54,700 nt of DNA from a virus (Duplodnaviria; Caudoviricetes): IMG/VR virus record IMGVR_UViG_3300028897_000119, positions 1 to 54,700 of that record. One strand, 5' to 3'. Shown one piece after another: positions 7,560-54,700 of the stretch. The stretch's first letter is position 1, and every line of letters begins with the position of its first letter. Made by a program: the position numbers and the translations under genes. The notes below the pieces were generated by a model, which was given only the letters and a program-made list of their open reading frames with translations, searched no databases and was not told the DNA's origin.

Positions 7560-7614
7560 CGTGTTACTCCTCGCGTGAACGGGCGCCGACACTGTGCCGG
7601 CGCCCTTGTTGGTT

Positions 7615-7866
7615 TCAGTAGCGCGCAAGCTGCTCGATCCAGTCGAGGCCGTTGCTTATGGGTGCCTCGATCCGCTGGCAGCCCTCGCCATTGCTGAACG
7701 GGTACAGGATCGTGCCCCGCCTTGCTTCTCGGTCGTAGTAAAGCCAGCGGTCGCCGTGCGCGGCGAAGCCGAGACCCTGGGCGAGCGCCTCGACATACTC
7801 GCGCTGCGCCCATACCTGCCGAGCCTCGCCCTCGCGGGGCTCGGTGAGTGTCTTGCTGATTGTCAT
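7615..7866 (-). CDS. Early hypothetical protein (MTISKTLTEP...)
   Basis: AGGAGG Shine-Dalgarno directly after the upstream stop. Confidence 0.7.
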   Translation of the reverse strand: MTISKTLTEPREGEARQVWAQREYVEALAQGLGFAAHGDRWLYYDREARRGTILYPFSNGEGCQRIEAPISNGLDWIEQLARY

Positions 7867-7876
7867 GGCGTACCTC

Positions 7877-8161
7877 CTAGAATTCGTCGGCCTCGATAAT
7901 TCCCCGGCCGCACTCGTTGCACGTTTGCCCGATGGCGTCGGGCTCGGCCCAAGTCCCGCAGTCGGGACAAATAGCAGACTCCGGCGCGGTAGCCTCGAAG
8001 CTCCACGCGCCGCAAGTGTTGCCGTTAATGTCGAGCAGGTTCCCGCAGTCATGGCCGGCCTCGATACGGTTGGCGGCCTGCCGTAGCAGGCGCGCCGTCT
8101 CAGTCTCGCCGCCGTCCGCGAAAGCGGAGCCGTTGCCCTCGATCTCAAGACTAAGCCGCAT
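7877..8161 (-). CDS. Early conserved phage protein (AF...E.ARLL...DINGN.G) with C-terminal zinc finger
   Basis: Family motif recalled from small phage proteins; CPDC...CNEC. Confidence 0.75.
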   Translation of the reverse strand: MRLSLEIEGNGSAFADGGETETARLLRQAANRIEAGHDCGNLLDINGNTCGAWSFEATAPESAICPDCGTWAEPDAIGQTCNECGRGIIEADEF

Positions 8162-8813
8162 CTTTCGCCTCCTTCGCGCGGTAGTCGCGCAGGAACTCGA
8201 TAACGGCCGCCATCTCGCGGGCGCTGAGGTCAATCTTTACGCTGCCGGGGCTGCGGTATTCAATCGTCAACGGCCCGCCCTCGATCTCGCGGACAAAATA
8301 GGGCCGGTCGGCCTGCCGGTGCTCGTTGTGAGTGTCGCGCGTTGCTTTCCATAGCAAGTCGATAAGCTCGGCCTCGCCGTCGCTGCTCTTTTGCCGGTCG
8401 GCTGCGATCTCCTCGGCCCTCGCATAAAGGCGCTCGTATTCCGGCAATAGCCGGCGCTCGATGTCGCGCGCGATAGCCTCGGGAGTCCTTGAACGGGCGC
8501 ACGAGATAACCGGCCGCGACTCTTTCGGGTTCCACATTGTCGAGGGGTCCACGGTCATCGTGCGGCCATCGGGGTCGGCGTAAGTCGGCCAGCCCAGGGC
8601 GCGGAACTCGAAGCGGTCGGGCTTGTTCCATACCACCTCGGCCACTATCTGCCGGCCTTGCCCGTTGCTGAAATAGTGCCAGCGGCTCCATGCGTCCTGT
8701 TCCTCGGGGTCGGGGTCAAGCTGCCAGCCGTTGCCGAGTGCCTCGGCTACTGGTGCAAGCTGCTCCCGCATATATGCGCGCTCCTCGGCGCGTTCTTTCT
8801 GGTAGTCGTTCAT
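8151..8813 (-). CDS. Early hypothetical protein
   Basis: ACGCGAGGAG leader; 220-aa ORF. Confidence 0.8.
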   Translation of the reverse strand: MNDYQKERAEERAYMREQLAPVAEALGNGWQLDPDPEEQDAWSRWHYFSNGQGRQIVAEVVWNKPDRFEFRALGWPTYADPDGRTMTVDPSTMWNPKESRPVISCARSRTPEAIARDIERRLLPEYERLYARAEEIAADRQKSSDGEAELIDLLWKATRDTHNEHRQADRPYFVREIEGGPLTIEYRSPGSVKIDLSAREMAAVIEFLRDYRAKEAKDAA

Positions 8814-8857
8814 GCTCTTACTCCTCGCGTAAGGGTTACGGGTCCAATGCGACCCAC

Positions 8858-8882
8858 CAAGCCGCCGACTCGCGGCGGCTTG
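8858..8882. repeat. Intergenic hairpin CAAGCCGCCG-N5-CGGCGGCTTG, copy 1
   Basis: Perfect 10-bp stem, identical to the stem at 10358-10382. Confidence 0.85.
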
Positions 8883-8891
8883 AGGGGGGCA

Positions 8892-9038
8892 CTAATGCCA
8901 GTCGTGGACGTAGCCGCCAAGGCGGCGAATCTCGGCCATTGCCTCGCGGTGCTCGGCCTCGCTGCGGGTTATCCACGTATTGCCGGCCATGCCGGCGCGC
9001 GGGGGCGAATAGCCCCAATGTATGACGCTGTACCTCAT
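8892..9038 (-). CDS. Early small protein (48 aa)
   Basis: GGAGG Shine-Dalgarno; ATGA coupling. Confidence 0.6.
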   Translation of the reverse strand: MRYSVIHWGYSPPRAGMAGNTWITRSEAEHREAMAEIRRLGGYVHDWH

Positions 9039-9295
9039 AGCCGCGCCTCCTGCGTTGTTAGCCAGCGGTCGAGGCGTCGCTCCTCGGCTTCGAGGTCGGC
9101 GATAAGCTGCAACGACTCGGCCAGCGTCCACGCGGTCGAGCCGGTCGCCTTTTCGCGCGCTCGCTGCGCGATCTCGACAATGGCGCCGGCTAGTTGCTCG
9201 TCTACCGGCCGCGCCGACTGCATGATGCAGCCGACACGCCGGCCCAGGGTGCGGGCGCCTTGCTCCCGCAGTAGCTCCACCGCGCTAGTAGTCAT
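9035..9295 (-). CDS. Early hypothetical protein
   Basis: GGAGG Shine-Dalgarno; coupled to neighbours. Confidence 0.65.
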   Translation of the reverse strand: MTTSAVELLREQGARTLGRRVGCIMQSARPVDEQLAGAIVEIAQRAREKATGSTAWTLAESLQLIADLEAEERRLDRWLTTQEARL

Positions 9296-9653
9296 AGCCG
9301 TAAGCCTCCCCGCCCTCGGCGTCGCACCAATTGGCCAGCCGCTTCGCGGCATAGATGGCGCTCAGCCCGTTAATGTATTCGGCCTGCTCCTCGTAGTCGG
9401 TGAACGTGTCGGCGATGCGCTCGCCGTCGCGGAACACCTCAAGGCCGGCATAGCCGAGCGAATCGCGGCGGGCCAGCACGTAGAGCGCGCCGCCCTCCTC
9501 GAATAGATCGAGGTCGTCGCCGGTGCCGGCGCCGATGGCGTAGCGGTGCCCGCGCCATATGACGACAGTGGCGGGGTTATAGCGGCCGGCGGCTCGCTGC
9601 TCCTCCCATGTCTCGCGGTCTAGCTGATACTCGAACGGTTTAAGGGTTCGCAT
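9285..9653 (-). CDS. Early hypothetical protein
   Basis: ACGCGAGGAG leader. Confidence 0.75.
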   Translation of the reverse strand: MRTLKPFEYQLDRETWEEQRAAGRYNPATVVIWRGHRYAIGAGTGDDLDLFEEGGALYVLARRDSLGYAGLEVFRDGERIADTFTDYEEQAEYINGLSAIYAAKRLANWCDAEGGEAYGYDY

Positions 9654-9870
9654 GTCGTGACTCCTCGCGTTGAATCCAATAGGTGAGATCGCCGAGGGTG
9701 CGGCCGACTGGCCGCCACTCCTCGGATTTATCGCAGGGCTGCGCGTACCATGCGCGGACCCACTCGCCCCGGTCGTTGTAGACTTTGCGCCGGGGGTTAA
9801 TGGTCAAGCCCTTGCGGGCGCGCCACTGGCGGCCCGCGATGCGGAATACTCGGGTTTTCTCGTAGGCCAT
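9640..9870 (-). CDS. Early basic hypothetical protein
   Basis: GAGG Shine-Dalgarno; overlaps next gene. Confidence 0.65.
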   Translation of the reverse strand: MAYEKTRVFRIAGRQWRARKGLTINPRRKVYNDRGEWVRAWYAQPCDKSEEWRPVGRTLGDLTYWIQREESRHANP

Positions 9871-9873
9871 CGG

Positions 9874-10302
9874 TCACACCTCGAAGCGGTCAAAAACGGG
9901 GATAGGCGAGGCGCTCGGGCCTCGGCTGTCGCTGGTGTCGATGTAGTGGCCGCCGAACATACCGCCGAGGCGGGGCCGGCCGTTGTCATCGACCGGGACG
10001 GCCTTGGCGCGCATTAGCTTGTGCTGCTTGGCGTAGCAAAGCGGCCGGCCGTCCGCGTCGTAGCGGTCAAGCTGGCCGATCTCGCCGAGCCACTGCGGCG
10101 ACGCCGCCAGCATGTAGCCACTGGCGCAGCCCTGCGGGTCGAGGTCATAGACCAGCGCCAGCGCCGGCATATCGTCGCGCGCCTCGAATATCTCCGGCAT
10201 ACCGTCGCCGATCAGGCAGGCGTGACGCTTGCCGCTGGTGACGCCGCCGGCGGTGCAATCCATGCCCTGCACGAAAACCATTAAGCCTTTCAGTGTTGTC
10301 AT
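9874..10302 (-). CDS. Early conserved phage protein (DCTxGG...MFGG...TSDSR...DRxE family)
   Basis: Family motif recalled; ACGCGAGGAG leader. Confidence 0.8.
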   Translation of the reverse strand: MTTLKGLMVFVQGMDCTAGGVTSGKRHACLIGDGMPEIFEARDDMPALALVYDLDPQGCASGYMLAASPQWLGEIGQLDRYDADGRPLCYAKQHKLMRAKAVPVDDNGRPRLGGMFGGHYIDTSDSRGPSASPIPVFDRFEV

Positions 10303-10357
10303 TGTCTTACTCCTCGCGTTGTCGCGGACCCTGGGCCCGCTGTTGTGAAAGCACTAA

Positions 10358-10382
10358 CAAGCCGCCGGCGCGCGGCGGCTTG
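10358..10382. repeat. Intergenic hairpin CAAGCCGCCG-N5-CGGCGGCTTG, copy 2
   Basis: Perfect 10-bp stem, extended by GCAC/GTGC. Confidence 0.85.
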
Positions 10383-10391
10383 GTGGTGCCC

Positions 10392-11336
10392 TCAGATAAG
10401 GGCAAGCTGTACCGGCTCGGCCAGCGGCTCGGCCGCCCGCCTCGCGACGCTTGCGACGCCGCCCCACTGGTCGGCCATCGCGCGCGCTATGCCGGCAAAG
10501 AATCGGCTCCGCTTGTGGCCTCGGTCGTCGCTCGGGCCCATACGGTCGGCGCCGCATGGCGACTGATTCGCCCACCGCTTAACCGGCTTGCCCTTGTAGG
10601 TGTCGAGGCGGGGCGCGACATAGTCGGCGGGGTCCGCTTCGAGCTTGGGCAGGCCGTGCAACCATAGGCCGGTTTTCTTGCTGTGGTCGTGGCCGTACTC
10701 GTAGGGCTGCACGTATTGGTCGGCCGGCCGTATCTCGGTGCCGATGCAGCCCACCGGATTTTCAAGCGCCCACCGCTCGACCGGCGCCGCCATGAGATCG
10801 CGGACAAAGTCGAGCGCCTCGATACGCTTGGCCTCGCGCTCGGGGTCACGCTGGCAGCGCCAAAGCTGGCAGGCGGCGAGGTAGGTACAGGGTGGGTGGA
10901 AAATGGCGAGGTGGTAGCCGTCGCCGATAATGTCCCGAACGTCGCCGGTGTAGTGCTGCCCCTCCGGCGACTCGGTCGGCAGGATGTCGCAGCTTGTGGC
11001 GTCGTGGCCGGCGGCCGCGAAAGCATCGCGGACAGTGCCCGAGAATTCGCAGCCGACGAGTACGCGGCTCAGGTGGTAGCCGCTGGCGCTGGCGCGCTCC
11101 TCGGCCGCTGCGATCTCGTCGCCATAGTCGGCGATCGACTCGGCGCCGGGGCGCTGCGTATAGACCGCCTCGGCGAGTAGCTCGCCGGTGTCGATGTAGT
11201 CGGCGGCCACGGCGTCGCCGTTTCGCACGTTGAGAAGCTGCGAGGCGGTCAGTGCGGCCCGCACGGCTGCCGAGTAGTCGGCAGCCAAGCGGGTCACGTT
11301 CAGCCGGTCCAGTCGAATCAGGCGGCCGCTGGTCAT
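10392..11336 (-). CDS. DNA cytosine-C5 methyltransferase-like protein with about 85 aa of N-terminal extension
   Basis: VLVGCEFSG (motif I-like), HPPC (catalytic), ENP, C-terminal RSRFFAGIARAMADQWG. Confidence 0.85.
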   Translation of the reverse strand: MTSGRLIRLDRLNVTRLAADYSAAVRAALTASQLLNVRNGDAVAADYIDTGELLAEAVYTQRPGAESIADYGDEIAAAEERASASGYHLSRVLVGCEFSGTVRDAFAAAGHDATSCDILPTESPEGQHYTGDVRDIIGDGYHLAIFHPPCTYLAACQLWRCQRDPEREAKRIEALDFVRDLMAAPVERWALENPVGCIGTEIRPADQYVQPYEYGHDHSKKTGLWLHGLPKLEADPADYVAPRLDTYKGKPVKRWANQSPCGADRMGPSDDRGHKRSRFFAGIARAMADQWGGVASVARRAAEPLAEPVQLALI

Positions 11337-11749
11337 TGCTTCGCCTCCACGTTGCGGCGTACCTGCGTCGCGTTGTACTCGGCGGCGTCGGCAGCATAGG
11401 CGCGCTCGGCGCTGCGGCGGTCAAGCTCGGCGCGCATGGCGTCCCTGAGTGCCCGCTGATAGTTGGGCAGGCAGCGATAGCCGTGGCCGTCCATTGTCAT
11501 CGCCTTGTCGCCGCCAGCCATATCGGCATGGCAGGCGCTCGCGTTCATCAGCTTGGCCTCAATGCTTCCCCGGCTGCGGCCGGCTAGTGGTCCGGTATCG
11601 CCGGGGCCGTTGCTGCGGCTGATATGGCGAATCATGGCGGCCTTGTTGTAGTCCTCGCGGCGCCGGACTCGGTCGAGCATGTCGAAGTAAAGGCGGCAAA
11701 GCGCAAGATTCTCGGCAGCCGTCCAAGGGGTGCGTTTCGTGACAGTCAT
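11333..11749 (-). CDS. First early gene: stand-alone domain resembling the N-terminus of HNH/DUF3883 restriction-type nucleases
   Basis: WTAAEN...YFDML...YNKA...RSRGSIEAKLMNASA...GY...NYQ pattern; no nuclease domain follows. Confidence 0.65.
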   Translation of the reverse strand: MTVTKRTPWTAAENLALCRLYFDMLDRVRRREDYNKAAMIRHISRSNGPGDTGPLAGRSRGSIEAKLMNASACHADMAGGDKAMTMDGHGYRCLPNYQRALRDAMRAELDRRSAERAYAADAAEYNATQVRRNVEAKQ

Positions 11750-11818
11750 GGTGTTGGTCCTCGCGTTGTAGTGTCGGCCTAGTGAGGGCCGGCTCGCTCG
11801 TTTGAGGGAGCATCGCGG

Positions 11819-19508: not shown

Positions 19509-19805
19509 ATGGCTTACAAGTCTGCATCTCTGAACCAAATCACTCCTCGCGTCGGCACGGCAGAAGGTGCTCCGGGCGATCCGTCCGGTCTCGGCTCGGC
19601 GATCCACACGTATCGCTCCGACGATCCGGTTGCGACGGTAATCGCAGCCGCCTATGTCGATGACGGCTACGACAAGGGTGTTCGTGTCGGTGACACGGTT
19701 ATCGTCATTGACGACAACCTCGGCACCATTGATCTCTGCCTCGTCACGGTGGTCGATATTTCGACCAATCCCGCCGGCGATGTCACGATGATTAACGGCA
19801 CGTAA
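19509..19805 (+). CDS. Small virion protein (decoration-like)
   Basis: AAGGAGG Shine-Dalgarno; follows the capsid gene, precedes a terminator. Confidence 0.7.
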   Translation: MAYKSASLNQITPRVGTAEGAPGDPSGLGSAIHTYRSDDPVATVIAAAYVDDGYDKGVRVGDTVIVIDDNLGTIDLCLVTVVDISTNPAGDVTMINGT

Positions 19806-51643: not shown

Positions 51644-51836
51644 GTTATGGACCGCCATCATCGGGCAGACCATTGTGATCGTGCTTGCGATCATCGGTGG
51701 GCTGCGCCACACCGAGAAGCGCATCACCAAGATCGAGACCAAGGTCGAGGGTCTCGAGCAGCAGGTTCAGGCGGTTCCGGGGATCTCGCGCGCGGTCGCT
51801 CGTCTCGAGGGTAGGGCTCAGGCCCAAGCCAAATAA
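51633..51836 (+). CDS. Small membrane plus coiled-coil protein (holin/XhlA-like architecture)
   Basis: Transmembrane segment then RITKIETKV...RLEG; GGAGG Shine-Dalgarno. Confidence 0.65.
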   Translation: MTPELWTAIIGQTIVIVLAIIGGLRHTEKRITKIETKVEGLEQQVQAVPGISRAVARLEGRAQAQAK

Positions 51837-51862
51837 AAAGGGCGCCTTTCGGCGCCCTCTCC
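51831..51862 (-). terminator. Rho-independent terminator between convergent operons (U-tract on the minus strand)
   Basis: AGGGCGCC-GAAA-GGCGCCCT followed by TTTTATTT on the minus strand. Confidence 0.85.
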
Positions 51863-51960
51863 CTGCACTTTTCACTAGCCGCAGCAGGCTCGGCTTACGC
51901 GAGGTGTCAGCCTCTCAGCCGACCGGGGGTTGTTTTAGATTCCAGACGTCATCGCTACCC

Positions 51961-52281
51961 CTAATGCGACGTCTCTGGTTCTGCGGAGGGAGGAGCCGCA
52001 GGCTCAGGGGGGAACACATCGGATTCCGGCGCCCTGGGGGCATCGTTCCATGCCTTGCTCGCCCGCGTCAATGTCTCCTGCGGATCCTGCGTGTAGTTAT
52101 TGCGAAACTCTACGGACCAGTCGCCGCAGCAGCTACCCATTGCGCGACCGTACTTGGCGCGCTCCGGCATCTCGATCAGCAGGCCATCGGGAAACTGCCC
52201 GCATGGACACATCTTGATCGGCGGCTGCTCGAGTTTCGGTGGCTGTTGCTGCAATGGGATTGTGGGTGGTCTTGAGCTCAT
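51961..52281 (-). CDS. Lar-like (restriction alleviation) zinc-binding protein
   Basis: KMCPCG...CC...A..AWN pattern. Confidence 0.5.
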   Translation of the reverse strand: MSSRPPTIPLQQQPPKLEQPPIKMCPCGQFPDGLLIEMPERAKYGRAMGSCCGDWSVEFRNNYTQDPQETLTRASKAWNDAPRAPESDVFPPEPAAPPSAEPETSH

Positions 52282-52296
52282 AGCTTCTCCTTGTCG

Positions 52297-52947
52297 TTAG
52301 GCCAGTCCGGCCAGTTCATAGCACTCGAGCATGAATTCCTGACAGCGGTGCTCCATTTGCTCGATCAGCTTGTTGTCTCTCGGCACCGCGACTCGGTGGA
52401 TCTTCTGCACGAGGCCGCCTTCGAGGTTGTCGCCGATGTAGTAGTTGATGAACCACCAGTAGGAGAACCCGGTCAGCATCATGTGGCCTTGCACTTGGTG
52501 CCGGTTTTCGGCGGGGCAAGCTCGCGTGGTGCCTTTGTGCTGCTCGGCAATCTCCCGGTACTTCTTGTAGTTCTTGAACAGCGCGCGGCATTTTACCTCA
52601 CCGCCGGCATCGTAGTTGGGAAGATGCAGGAGGTCAGGCGAGCCGGCGAGCCAGTCGAATTTCTCCGAGATCAGGAACACGTTGTGCTCAACATCGACAT
52701 CGTACTTGAACTCGTAGCCGGCGATCGCACGAGGCTCGTGCTCCCTGCCGTGCTGAGCCCACTCGGGGTTCTCCTCGACATGCTTGTGACCGAGGAGCTC
52801 GAGGACTTTCTCATGCCGATATTTCTGATACCGTTTCGTTGTCGGCTTGGCCATTACATCGGCGAGGCGGGAGCAGGTAATCCGATTTCTGCGGAGGTCT
52901 AACCACTCATCGGATCCCTGCTCAACGGTGACTATGCGGCAGTCCAT
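52297..52947 (-). CDS. YqaJ / lambda-exonuclease family recombination nuclease
   Basis: QGSDEW...R...IT.S, G...EP.A, GSPD, EVKC, QVQG.M. Confidence 0.92.
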   Translation of the reverse strand: MDCRIVTVEQGSDEWLDLRRNRITCSRLADVMAKPTTKRYQKYRHEKVLELLGHKHVEENPEWAQHGREHEPRAIAGYEFKYDVDVEHNVFLISEKFDWLAGSPDLLHLPNYDAGGEVKCRALFKNYKKYREIAEQHKGTTRACPAENRHQVQGHMMLTGFSYWWFINYYIGDNLEGGLVQKIHRVAVPRDNKLIEQMEHRCQEFMLECYELAGLA

Positions 52948-53777
52948 TACGACTCGTCCGCGTCACTCTTGCTCGCCTTCGCCTGTGGCTTCTTATCGGC
53001 CGGTTTCTTGTCCTGCCCCGCTTGCTGCTTCTGCGCGGCTTCACGCTTCGCTTGGTTGCGGAGCAGATTGATCGCTGCGTCAGCCTGACCAGCGGGGATG
53101 TCGCGTACCTGCGTGATCGGCACATCGCTGGTGCTGAATACCTTGGCCAGCATCCGGTCAACGACACGGTCGCCATCGTCGCCGAACAGATTTTGAGCCT
53201 CGACCAGAATGTCATCGGCTTCCTTCGGCGAGATCCGGTCATACTGACTCGGGTCTTTCATGGCTGCCTGCGCATCGTCATCGGCCTGAGCCACGGCGCA
53301 GATCGCCGACAGCATGTAGCGGCGCATGTAGGTGAGCGTCGAGCCGATGCCCTGGGGGTTGGGCTTCTCGCAGTACATCTGCCACTCGGTCGAGATCGAC
53401 TGGCCTGACTGGTGCGTCAGCATGGTAATCAGGCGCACGTAATTCGAGGTCGGTGTGCCGTCATCGTTGTAAGCCTGCACCGGAAGCTGCACGACAGCGA
53501 GCCCGTTCTTGGCCAGCGGCTCGCGCACGACATCGAGCACGGCAGCGAGGTTCGCGTACTTGCTGTTGAGAAACTCGTTTTCCGTGTTCTTCTCGGCGTT
53601 CCTGATTTCAGTCTGCGCCTTGGCGAGTGCGGTGTAGAGCTCCTTGCAATCGTCGGCCTCGGTGAGCGCGGCGTGGCTGTTCAGTCGTTGCTCGACAAGG
53701 CTCTCGATCAGATCCTTGAAAAACTCCTGCGTCATGCGGATCGGCAGGTCAGGTGCTTCGGTGTATTGGTCATTCAT
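52947..53777 (-). CDS. erf: ERF-family single-strand annealing protein
   Basis: ALAKAQ...KYANL...PLAKNGL...HQSGQ...PQ..GS.LTY.RRY...DDD. Confidence 0.92.
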   Translation of the reverse strand: MNDQYTEAPDLPIRMTQEFFKDLIESLVEQRLNSHAALTEADDCKELYTALAKAQTEIRNAEKNTENEFLNSKYANLAAVLDVVREPLAKNGLAVVQLPVQAYNDDGTPTSNYVRLITMLTHQSGQSISTEWQMYCEKPNPQGIGSTLTYMRRYMLSAICAVAQADDDAQAAMKDPSQYDRISPKEADDILVEAQNLFGDDGDRVVDRMLAKVFSTSDVPITQVRDIPAGQADAAINLLRNQAKREAAQKQQAGQDKKPADKKPQAKASKSDADES

Positions 53778-54039
53778 TGCGGTCTCCTCGCGTTGCTTTT
53801 GCTACTCGTCCATCACCGCCGCACGTTTTGCACGGCAGCCAGTTGACGTTGTCGGAAAGTGGATCGGCGCCGTGACCCTTGCACTCGGGGCAGCGGTCAG
53901 TGGTGTCGATCTCGTGTTGCCGGTGGCGCTCGTAAGCATCATCCTCGTCCTCCTGACCGAACCAGCGATCCCAGGATTCAGCGGCGTCCTCCGGTGTCTG
54001 TGGGCCGTCAGATATACGGCACGGCATTTTCGGATCCAT
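53770..54039 (-). CDS. Small acidic protein with DnaJ-type zinc finger
   Basis: CPECKGHG...CKTCGGDG; ACGCGAGG leader. Confidence 0.75.
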   Translation of the reverse strand: MDPKMPCRISDGPQTPEDAAESWDRWFGQEDEDDAYERHRQHEIDTTDRCPECKGHGADPLSDNVNWLPCKTCGGDGRVAKATRGDRNE

Positions 54040-54045
54040 TTTTTT

Positions 54046-54093
54046 CCTCGCGTAAGTATTGCTTGTCAGTACAAGTGTCAGTACATTATGCCT
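54046..54093. promoter_or_regulatory. Divergent control region: plus-strand TTGCTT-N17-TACATT promoter and two TGTCAGTACA direct repeats
   Basis: Repeats at 54064-54073 and 54076-54085 between divergent genes. Confidence 0.7.
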
Positions 54094-54246
54094 ATGAAAA
54101 AGAGAACAGACAAGGTCCAGTTTCGGCTCACCGCACAAGAGCTCCGGGCCCTCAAGCTGCTCGCGGCGCGCGCCGGCCTATCGCTGTCGGCGTACCTCCG
54201 CGAGTCCATCCGTAACGACGCCAAAGACAAGGGGATTCCGATATGA
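54094..54246 (+). CDS. Ribbon-helix-helix (CopG/MobC-like) regulator
   Basis: KVQFRLT..E...L...A...GLSLSAYLR. Confidence 0.85.
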   Translation: MKKRTDKVQFRLTAQELRALKLLAARAGLSLSAYLRESIRNDAKDKGIPI

Positions 54247-54461: not shown

Positions 54462-54628
54462 AAGATCCCGACAAGATGAGCATGTCCGAGCTGCGCCGTG
54501 TGGCCAAGGCCGCCAAGCGCGTACTCAAATGCAGCGGCTACGGTGGTTGGGATCTGCAGGATGCTTACGCGAAGCTGCGGCGCGAATTCGAGGACGAGGA
54601 GGACCGCCGTGCCGCTACACGTTCCTGA
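54458..54628 (+). CDS. Small hypothetical protein (56 aa) running into the terminal overlap
   Basis: MKDPDKMSMSELRR...; its stop corresponds to position 72 of the window. Confidence 0.6.
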   Translation: MKDPDKMSMSELRRVAKAAKRVLKCSGYGGWDLQDAYAKLRREFEDEEDRRAATRS

Positions 54629-54700
54629 CTGGTGCGAGAAGCACCGCGTACAGTTGCGCGGCTATCCGATTGGCGACAAGCAAAACGGCGCATTCCATTT
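54557..54700. repeat. Terminal direct repeat, copy 2
   Basis: Identical to 1-144. Confidence 0.95.

Follow-up and report, generated by a model that had tools for sequence, protein, structure and literature searches.

[quoted passage not shown] The question arises in IMG/VR record IMGVR_UViG_3300028897_000119, an uncultured member of the Caudoviricetes whose complete genome (54.7 kb, 61% G+C, direct terminal repeats) was analysed over its full 54,700 nt, referred to here as the window. Positions 1-144 and 54557-54700 are identical in sequence (compare, for example, ~39 and ~54595), which fits the direct terminal repeat given by IMG/VR. A near-identical contig sits in a MAG titled Acidithiobacillales bacterium, and Pfam matches in the window are to a T7-type head-tail connector, a capsid protein and an Sf6-type small terminase. 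Among phage records, blastn with 1.6 kb of the window returned no match, and tblastn of cultured phages with the exonuclease described below gave only matches under 32% identity, none of them close. The sequencing runs on record for this DNA include none of RNA. The operon concerned, which we call the early-left operon, is laid out as follows.

51961-54039, minus strand: early-left operon, four ORFs.
53770-54039, minus strand: first cistron, a Zn-ribbon-like ORF with its ATG at 54039.
52947-53777, minus strand: Erf (Pfam ERF, 1.6e-22).
52297-52947, minus strand: YqaJ exonuclease, exo (Pfam YqaJ, 1.4e-17).
51961-52281, minus strand: last ORF of the operon, with its stop codon TAG at 51963-51961.
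54085-54113, minus strand: promoter-like site TTGTCT-17-CATAAT, a consensus match only.

The promoter-like site would give a 5' UTR of roughly 35-40 nt, ending in the leader that is the proposed target. Late genes on the plus strand converge on the operon, and their end at 51836 abuts its terminator. The last ORF had been labelled Lar-like in a first-pass annotation of the sequence, a label we drop, as the ORF matches no Pfam family (E up to 0.01) and no PHROG (0.001); its homologues are rare, with four proteins in a 5.8-billion-protein search and a handful of loci. At the promoter, a 52-aa ribbon-helix-helix (RHH) protein that is NikA-like (E 4.8e-10) is encoded at 54088-54246 (+), and the gene start at 54088 overlaps the -10 hexamer (54085-54090) of the leftward promoter. 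Two direct repeats of GTACTGACA lie on the minus strand at 54084-54076 and 54072-54064, between the -10 hexamer and the leader, and similar repeats occur in two related phages, G003 and L022. The RHH protein and these repeats look like a repressor-operator pair for the early-left operon.

Beyond the last stop codon, the minus strand carries the following elements, in which SD stands for Shine-Dalgarno and MFE for the minimum free energy structure.

51960-51831, minus strand: 3' UTR of the early-left operon, from the last-ORF stop to the terminator end.
51904-51894, minus strand: anti-leader seed CCTCGCGTAAG, consisting of the anti-SD core CCTC and the clade-specific flank GCGTAAG.
51922-51890, minus strand: seed hairpin TCGGCT-ga-GAGG-ctgaca-CCTC-gcgta-AGCCGA, in the RNAfold MFE.
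51888-51884 with 51866-51862, minus strand: stem CCTGC / GCAGG, in the RNAfold MFE.
51857-51840, minus strand, continuing to 51831: intrinsic terminator, hairpin GGGCGCC-gaaa-GGCGCCC followed by TTTTT (terminator-like site 51862-51835).
51835-51905, minus strand: whole 3' module (seed, pseudoknot, terminator), matched by covariance model R1 at 65.8 bits, a match obtained by construction since the window sequence is in the R1 training alignment.

The hairpin, the CCTGC/GCAGG stem and the terminator had been proposed in the first-pass annotation; all three are present, and RNAfold returns that hairpin and that stem as the MFE of the terminated transcript. The fold has a z-score of -3.14 over 95 nt, which 1 of 200 shuffles matches, and of -2.08 over 141 nt, which 4 of 200 match. 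Within the MFE the CCTC core is paired (probability of being unpaired 0.01-0.06) and GCGTA is unpaired (0.68-0.99), the anti-SD occupying the 3' arm and internal loop of the seed hairpin. The hairpin loop CTGACA (51905-51910, minus strand) is identical, and runs in the same direction, to the final six letters of the operator-like repeat GTACTGACA; no equivalent was seen in G003 or L022, and the likeness may be due to chance. The module lies in the 3' UTR and shares the intrinsic terminator of the mRNA on one strand. Across the whole window no Rfam family matched at its gathering threshold, the best sub-threshold match being PrrB_RsmZ (18.9 vs 44 bits), and in the corresponding modules of two relatives, L041 and L037, no Rfam family came near threshold, c4-type antisense RNAs and pseudoknot riboswitches included.

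The leaders that the seed complements in the window are these.

54046-54056, minus strand: target 1, leader and SD of the first cistron of the early-left operon (ATG at 54039), 11 nt.
8823-8833, minus strand: target 2, leader and SD of gene 8151-8813 in a second leftward operon, 11 nt.
7569-7576, minus strand: 8-nt leader, ACGCGAGG.
9663-9670, minus strand: 8-nt leader, ACGCGAGG.
10312-10319, minus strand: 8-nt leader, ACGCGAGG.
11759-11766, minus strand: 8-nt leader, ACGCGAGG.
53786-53793, minus strand: 8-nt leader of Erf, ACGCGAGG.

As the first-pass annotation had claimed, CCTCGCGTAAG is the exact 11-nt complement of the first two of these leaders, and its first 8 nt complement the five further Shine-Dalgarno leaders. 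Target 1 is the single longest complement of the module within the 1754 nt upstream of exo. For the genes with ACGCGAGG leaders in the span 7569-11766, the function of the products is not known except for a DNA methyltransferase neighbour. Directly upstream of three of the motif leaders there are G+C-rich hairpins (7577-7616, 10320-10345 and 11767-11795, minus strand; for example GGCGCCGgcacagtgtCGGCGCC before 7576), which may be processing sites or internal terminators between early cistrons. A reading of the plus-strand copy of the motif as the ribosome-binding site of a plus-strand gene was rejected, as there is no start codon at the right spacing, and the antisense ORF at 51685-52275 has low GC3.

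How far could such matches arise by chance? The 11-mer CTTACGCGAGG, a word chosen post hoc, is present in three copies in the window, at 8823 (-), 54046 (-) and 51894 (+), with 0 expected from 100 shuffles. The 8-mer ACGCGAGG has 10 copies vs 4.61 expected, a count reached by 3 of 100 shuffles; seven of its eight minus-strand copies (7569, 8823, 9663, 10312, 11759, 53786 and 54046) sit 6-9 nt before an ATG and are extended Shine-Dalgarno leaders, and the copy at 19545 is without a nearby start. Counting any 8-10-nt complement to the whole UTR is non-discriminating, with control windows averaging 4.1 leaders at 8 nt, and single-seed and longest-match statistics were used instead. An 11-nt complement to one of the six operon leaders is found in 50 of 4025 same-length control windows (1.2%), and an equally multi-target anti-8-mer in a 130-nt window has a chance of ~0.036. 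The seed-leader match of the window, taken alone, is suggestive (P about 0.01-0.04).

Related phages extend the comparison. An exonuclease alignment yielded 27 viral loci, 26 of them 62-77% identical, and in 25 of these 26 a homologous stretch precedes the first intrinsic terminator downstream of exo, the exception (L029) being without such a stretch before its terminator. A covariance model, R1, was built from 22 related-locus sequences and used to scan 443 kb; it gives one strong match per contig in 26 contigs (32.8-77.5 bits), of which only L055 (51.2 bits) lies outside the model-building set, and it has no match in G001. The most conserved primary-sequence feature of the model is TCCTCG, an anti-SD at its 5' end, and the common module consists of an anti-SD hairpin with this consensus, a candidate H-type pseudoknot and an intrinsic terminator. 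A weak R1 match in the window at 10311-10381 (+), with 18.4 bits and E 0.08, is antisense to the leader of gene 9874-10302 and is probably only a leader antisense plus an intergenic hairpin. The orientation of operon and module relative to exo is constant in every locus with the downstream region read, and on this ground an invertible segment was rejected.

The last ORF often has its stop codon within 5-15 nt of the seed start, or overlapping the seed, and ribosomes terminating at or near the seed could mask it because the stop codon adjoins or lies inside the seed. Many relatives (L005, L031, L033, L036, L039 and others) have a small hydrophobic ORF ending ...LTMM* inserted before the module, its stop 5-15 nt before the seed, and in the L041 clade the TAG stop of the last ORF falls within the seed (TTTCCTCGTAGGAAA). 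A terminator loop of 10-12 nt containing CCTCCGTT, a second anti-SD, occurs in G002 (L024 7242-7269), L025, L026/27 and L055; in G002 it matches 11 nt of the first-gene leader and 9 nt of the Erf leader, and in L026 8 nt of the Erf leader. The first 60 nt past the last-ORF stop of G002 (L004/L024) hold a G001-type pseudoknot-like unit, GCCG...CCCCTGC...CGGC...GCAGGGG, ahead of a CCGG-type unit; G001 itself (L003/L028), which R1 does not match, has only the G001-type unit together with extra hairpins.

The candidate pseudoknot is formed by two helices, S1 and S2, placed in the window as follows.

51895-51862, minus strand: candidate H-type pseudoknot, S1 and S2 with an A-rich linker between.
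51895-51891 with 51881-51877, minus strand: S1, AGCCG with CGGCT.
51888-51884 with 51866-51862, minus strand: S2, CCTGC with GCAGG.

Across members S1 is a hairpin of 4-6 bp, usually CCGG...CCGG, with a C-rich run in its loop, and S2 pairs this run with a G-rich run past the A-rich linker, directly before the terminator. In the MAFFT alignment of 22 relatives (A4), 75.5% of S1, 75.0% of S2 and 88.2% of terminator positions are paired, against 42-55% in slid controls. Changes on both sides are seen at 2 of the 5 pairs of S1 and 3 of the 5 pairs of S2, where the arms vary as CCTGC/GCAGG, CCCAC/GTGGG, CCAT/ATGG, CCTAC/GTAGG, CTCCC/GGGAG and CCCGCC/GGCGGG, and the whole-structure covariation score is 0.295 vs 0.158 in shuffled alignments (0/500). 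We call the pseudoknot a candidate because S2 has only 3-4 bp in 10 of the 22 members, G003-like ones included; pseudoknot searches on single sequences often found shuffles as good, and RNAalifold on the MAFFT alignment recovers the terminator only. The module stems contain 31 G-U pairs on the operon-sense strand, and these, like the L032 seed-leader pairing given below, point to RNA rather than DNA as the form in which the sequence is likely to act. Two conformations are possible for the window's module because S1 and the outer stem of the seed hairpin compete for AGCCG.

The central observation concerns the letters on the 3' side of the anti-SD core, which vary by clade and are matched by those that precede the SD in their own operon's leader. 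The match extends over 10-11 nt to the SD leader of the operon's first or second gene in 7 of 12 clades and over 8-9 nt in 4 more, as in the pairs below.

Window: seed CCTCGCGTAAG, leader CTTACGCGAGG, 11 nt.
G003, L030, L037: seed TTTCCTCGCG, leader CGCGAGGAAA, 10 nt.
L041, L043, L045: seed TTCCTCGTAGG, leader CCTACGAGGAA, 11 nt.
L022: seed CCTCCTCGGGT, leader ACCCGAGGAGG, 11 nt with the second gene and 9 with the first.
G001: seed CTCCTCGTGC, leader GCACGAGGAG, 10 nt.
G002: seed CCTCCGTTTCT (terminator loop), leader AGAAACGGAGG, 11 nt.
L036: seed CTCGTAGTG, leader CACTACGAG, 9 nt.
L040: seed CCTCCGAA, leader TTCGGAGG, 8 nt.
L032: seed TCCTTGCGT, leader ACGCGAGGA, 9 nt including one G-U.

SD and anti-SD cores are complementary anyway, and the information resides only in the 3-7 flanking letters. 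Among 11 clade representatives the own-clade matches that contain the SD measure 11, 10, 11, 10, 11, 7, 8, 4, 4, 8 and 11 nt, a mean of 8.6 vs 6.3 off the diagonal that was reached in 0 of 200,000 permutations; the same own-vs-other permutation over 18 loci gave 0/100,000. A sliding-window control for each locus gives P values of 0.009-0.05 in 10 of the 18 loci and 0.08-0.65 in the other 8, and Fisher's combination of all 18, which are mutually dependent, is 5e-7. A further locus, L055, was found afterwards by the covariance model only and bears out the prediction from the earlier loci: its seed TCCTCGCGTTG has an 11-nt complement, CAACGCGAGGA, at the operon head, 7 nt before a GTG, and compared with the window two flank positions are altered on both sides. 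Each of four L041-clade records, one of them 100% complete, has a single copy of the target 9-mer on either strand, one being the leader and the other the seed. Covariation of seed and leaders across related phages, suggested as a check by the first-pass annotation, is thus found, with the anti-SD seed kept at the homologous place. The same annotation had left room for a chance match; this caution holds for the window alone, where the match is only suggestive, but chance is no longer a good explanation because the seed flanks change together with the leader of their own operon.

A scan free of gene calls looked, at 19 loci, through as much as 3.5 kb upstream of exo for the module's longest perfect complement; in nine of them this was unique and fell on an SD situated 2-8 nt ahead of a long ORF. 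Ties occur in L036, L037 and L039, and the top match lies elsewhere in L023, L026, L031, L032, L033, L040 and L041, the 11-nt SD match of L041 ranking second to a 12-nt match. In L043 and L045 an upstream in-frame start could put the 11-nt site within the ORF. At the operon head of L032 (3553-3635), ACGCGAGGAAAAAAAATG opens a 21-codon mini-ORF, which may be a leader peptide and is followed by a second SD and an ATG. In the L022 genome CGCGAGGA was considered as a generic leader and rejected: coding-like context surrounds 10 of its 11 copies (9 of 10 sites), and a single site, a tandem pair, is leader-like.

Some members depart from the pattern. L023 has only 6 nt of pairing with its first leader, and the six CGCGAGGT sites in its whole 12.6-kb record are the seed's own complement and five non-leader sites. 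For the hairpin seed of L026/27, a genome that is 86% complete offers no 8-nt target; only the terminator loop matches a leader there, that of Erf, over 8 nt. A small hairpin, its loop only 3-4 nt long, holds the anti-SD in its 5' arm and loop in most members, and the seed is not a free single strand because its anti-SD core is paired in the hairpin. The predicted energy of the window's seed-leader hybrid is -18.4 kcal/mol, or -12.2 net of opening costs; with these costs included, 10 of 11 seed-leader duplexes fall between -5.5 and -12.7 kcal/mol, and that of L036 is at +0.4. RNAduplex applied to whole modules and leaders shows no own-vs-other signal (51,483/200,000 permutations) and in the window does not put the motif leaders on top. 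Many imperfect duplexes score equally in this G+C-rich DNA.

The analysis shows the complementarity, its conservation and covariation, the structure signals of the module and its strand. We think it fairly probable that the conserved 3' module pairs with the first leader of its own operon and so provides delayed negative feedback on translation. At its 3' end, over ~70-95 nt, the erf-exo transcript would form the small anti-SD hairpin, the candidate pseudoknot and the terminator, and the anti-SD with its clade-specific flank would base-pair with the ribosome-binding leader of the operon's first cistron. In the window phage and some relatives, other early leaders with the same extended SD would also be paired. 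Such pairing would hide the SD from the 30S subunit, so that completion of the transcript, or build-up of a stable 3' end, would lower translation of the operon head and of look-alike early genes. In vivo pairing of the two RNAs and the resulting translational repression we infer from sequence, with the pairing acting in cis or, in trans, through a 3'-derived RNA. The first-pass annotation had offered a 3' UTR-derived small RNA (sRNA) that shuts off a regulon, or a long-range 5'-3' pairing of the mRNA. The former holds in part, as several leaders match the seed in the window, G001 and the G003/L030 clade, where the extended SD is common to other early genes, but the L041 clade has a single target. 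What the clades keep is a 3' module complementary to the 5' leader of its own operon, and we take pairing within the operon, in cis or through a 3'-derived RNA, rather than a regulon to be the conserved core because the L041-clade pair is unique in the genome.

Three other explanations have to be set against feedback through the operon's own leader. The module could be a structural 3' end only, which terminates transcription and protects the mRNA 3' end, with an anti-SD hairpin that is no more than an internal helix of SD/anti-SD type and a leader match made up of generic SD complementarity and chance in the flank. The core TCCTCG does complement any SD of the CGAGGA type, half of the seed is paired inside the module, P values at single loci are modest, own and foreign leaders are not told apart by duplex energies, and L023 and L026/27 lack a good first-leader match. 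We nevertheless hold this explanation to be unlikely, as the flanks match 3-7 further letters in at least 8 clades with the letters differing between them, no clade-level permutation in 200,000 equalled the observed value, the L055 prediction was borne out and the L041-clade pair is unique in whole genomes. Alternatively, the leader motif and its inverted copy might both be recognized by a protein, whether a phage translational repressor or RegB-like nuclease that acts on the extended SD, or a DNA-binding regulator such as the divergently encoded RHH protein, which would have sites at either end of the operon. An extended SD common to seven leaders recalls the RegB site of T4 early leaders (PMC3014915), the RHH gene (NikA-like, 4.8e-10) and direct repeats flank the operon promoter, and the two sites form an inverted repeat on DNA. 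Yet to a protein that reads single-stranded RNA the complement would be a different site, and the copy sits inside an RNA module whose helices covary with sense-strand G-U pairs. The L032 pairing is kept only through a G-U, the target always takes in the SD beside the start codon, and there is no sign of inversion, with orientation relative to exo constant where the downstream region was read; protein recognition thus appears very unlikely.

The seeds are clade-specific and match several leaders in the window, G001 and G003, which would also suit a purely trans-acting shut-off or immunity sRNA with expression of its own, whose barcode seed silences the early operons of its own phage or of a superinfecting relative. 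The P1/P7 c4 RNA offers a precedent, as c4 is described as acting at a ribosome binding site and underlying heteroimmunity (PMC12197685). Against this, no promoter-like site is found upstream of the seed on the minus strand within 51700-52300, the seed often lies 5-15 nt from the last-ORF stop or overlaps it, the L041 clade has a single target, and no integrase or lysogeny gene was found among the proteins scanned, which are part of the ORFs. A purely trans-acting RNA is therefore distinctly improbable in our estimate, and feedback within the operon remains the reading that we prefer.

Several known systems resemble the proposed feedback in part. Lambda sib, located where the leftward early operon ends, controls the upstream int gene (retroregulation); it is an RNase III hairpin that triggers 3'-5' decay. 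The present module is likewise a 3'-end element of a leftward early operon for which control of upstream genes is proposed, whereas sib works without SD pairing. Enterobacterial 3' UTR-derived sRNAs such as CpxQ, SroC and MicL share the intrinsic terminator of the parent mRNA and carry a conserved seed just upstream of it. The module resembles them in its shared terminator and in a conserved seed complementary to target mRNAs, and differs in that its proposed target is the leader of the parent operon itself. The c4 RNA lies upstream of its targets and is tRNA-like, unlike the module, which is at the 3' end and for which Rfam scans find no c4-type family. The likeness to the c4 RNA of P1/P7 and the CI RNA of P4 lies in a phage RNA that comes from the operon it controls and pairs over short stretches around a ribosome binding site, with specificity shifting between related phages by coupled changes (PMC12197685).

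The T4 RegB/RegA system is a functional analogue in which early genes share an extended SD leader through which they are shut off after transcription; the regulator also controls itself in this way, at its own SD (PMC3014915). Early genes in the window similarly share an extended SD-containing leader; the effectors in T4 are proteins, a nuclease and a repressor, and the effector proposed here is an RNA. A further likeness is to the icaR mRNA of Staphylococcus aureus, whose 3' UTR is reported to carry an anti-SD motif that pairs with the SD region of its own mRNA, blocking the initiation complex and creating an RNase III substrate (PMC3868564). The module shares with icaR a 3' UTR motif that complements the SD region of its own transcript, over 11 nt in the window. 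It differs from icaR in belonging to a polycistronic phage operon of 2-3 kb, in seed flanks that covary with the leader, in its conserved architecture of hairpin, candidate pseudoknot and terminator, and in members that match several other leaders. A search of the literature, supplements excepted, turned up no description of an element in a phage 3' UTR pairing with its own operon's leader. To our knowledge, there are very few cases of 3'-5' UTR pairing within one bacterial mRNA. Relative to known anti-SD 3' UTR or antisense control, the novelty lies in the position at the 3' end of a phage polycistronic operon, the conserved module and the barcode-like covariation.

Post-transcriptional timing of phage early genes is known mainly from proteins, such as T4 RegA and RegB, and from cis-antisense RNAs in a few model phages. 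The present analysis adds an RNA module, defined by its sequence, that recurs in at least 26 contigs of uncultured phages, whose clades supply natural 'compensatory mutants' and whose target is short and clear, and the module would add a structured RNA family with a candidate pseudoknot to the catalogue. It is possible, if rather doubtful, that these modules represent an undescribed family of phage 3'-terminal 'anti-leader' RNAs, with barcode seeds that have co-evolved with their own leader as a self-timing circuit. If so, the finished transcript or a stable 3' fragment of it would close on the operon's ribosome binding site, and the clade barcodes might let a resident phage silence a superinfecting relative that carries the same barcode, though not one that carries a different barcode.
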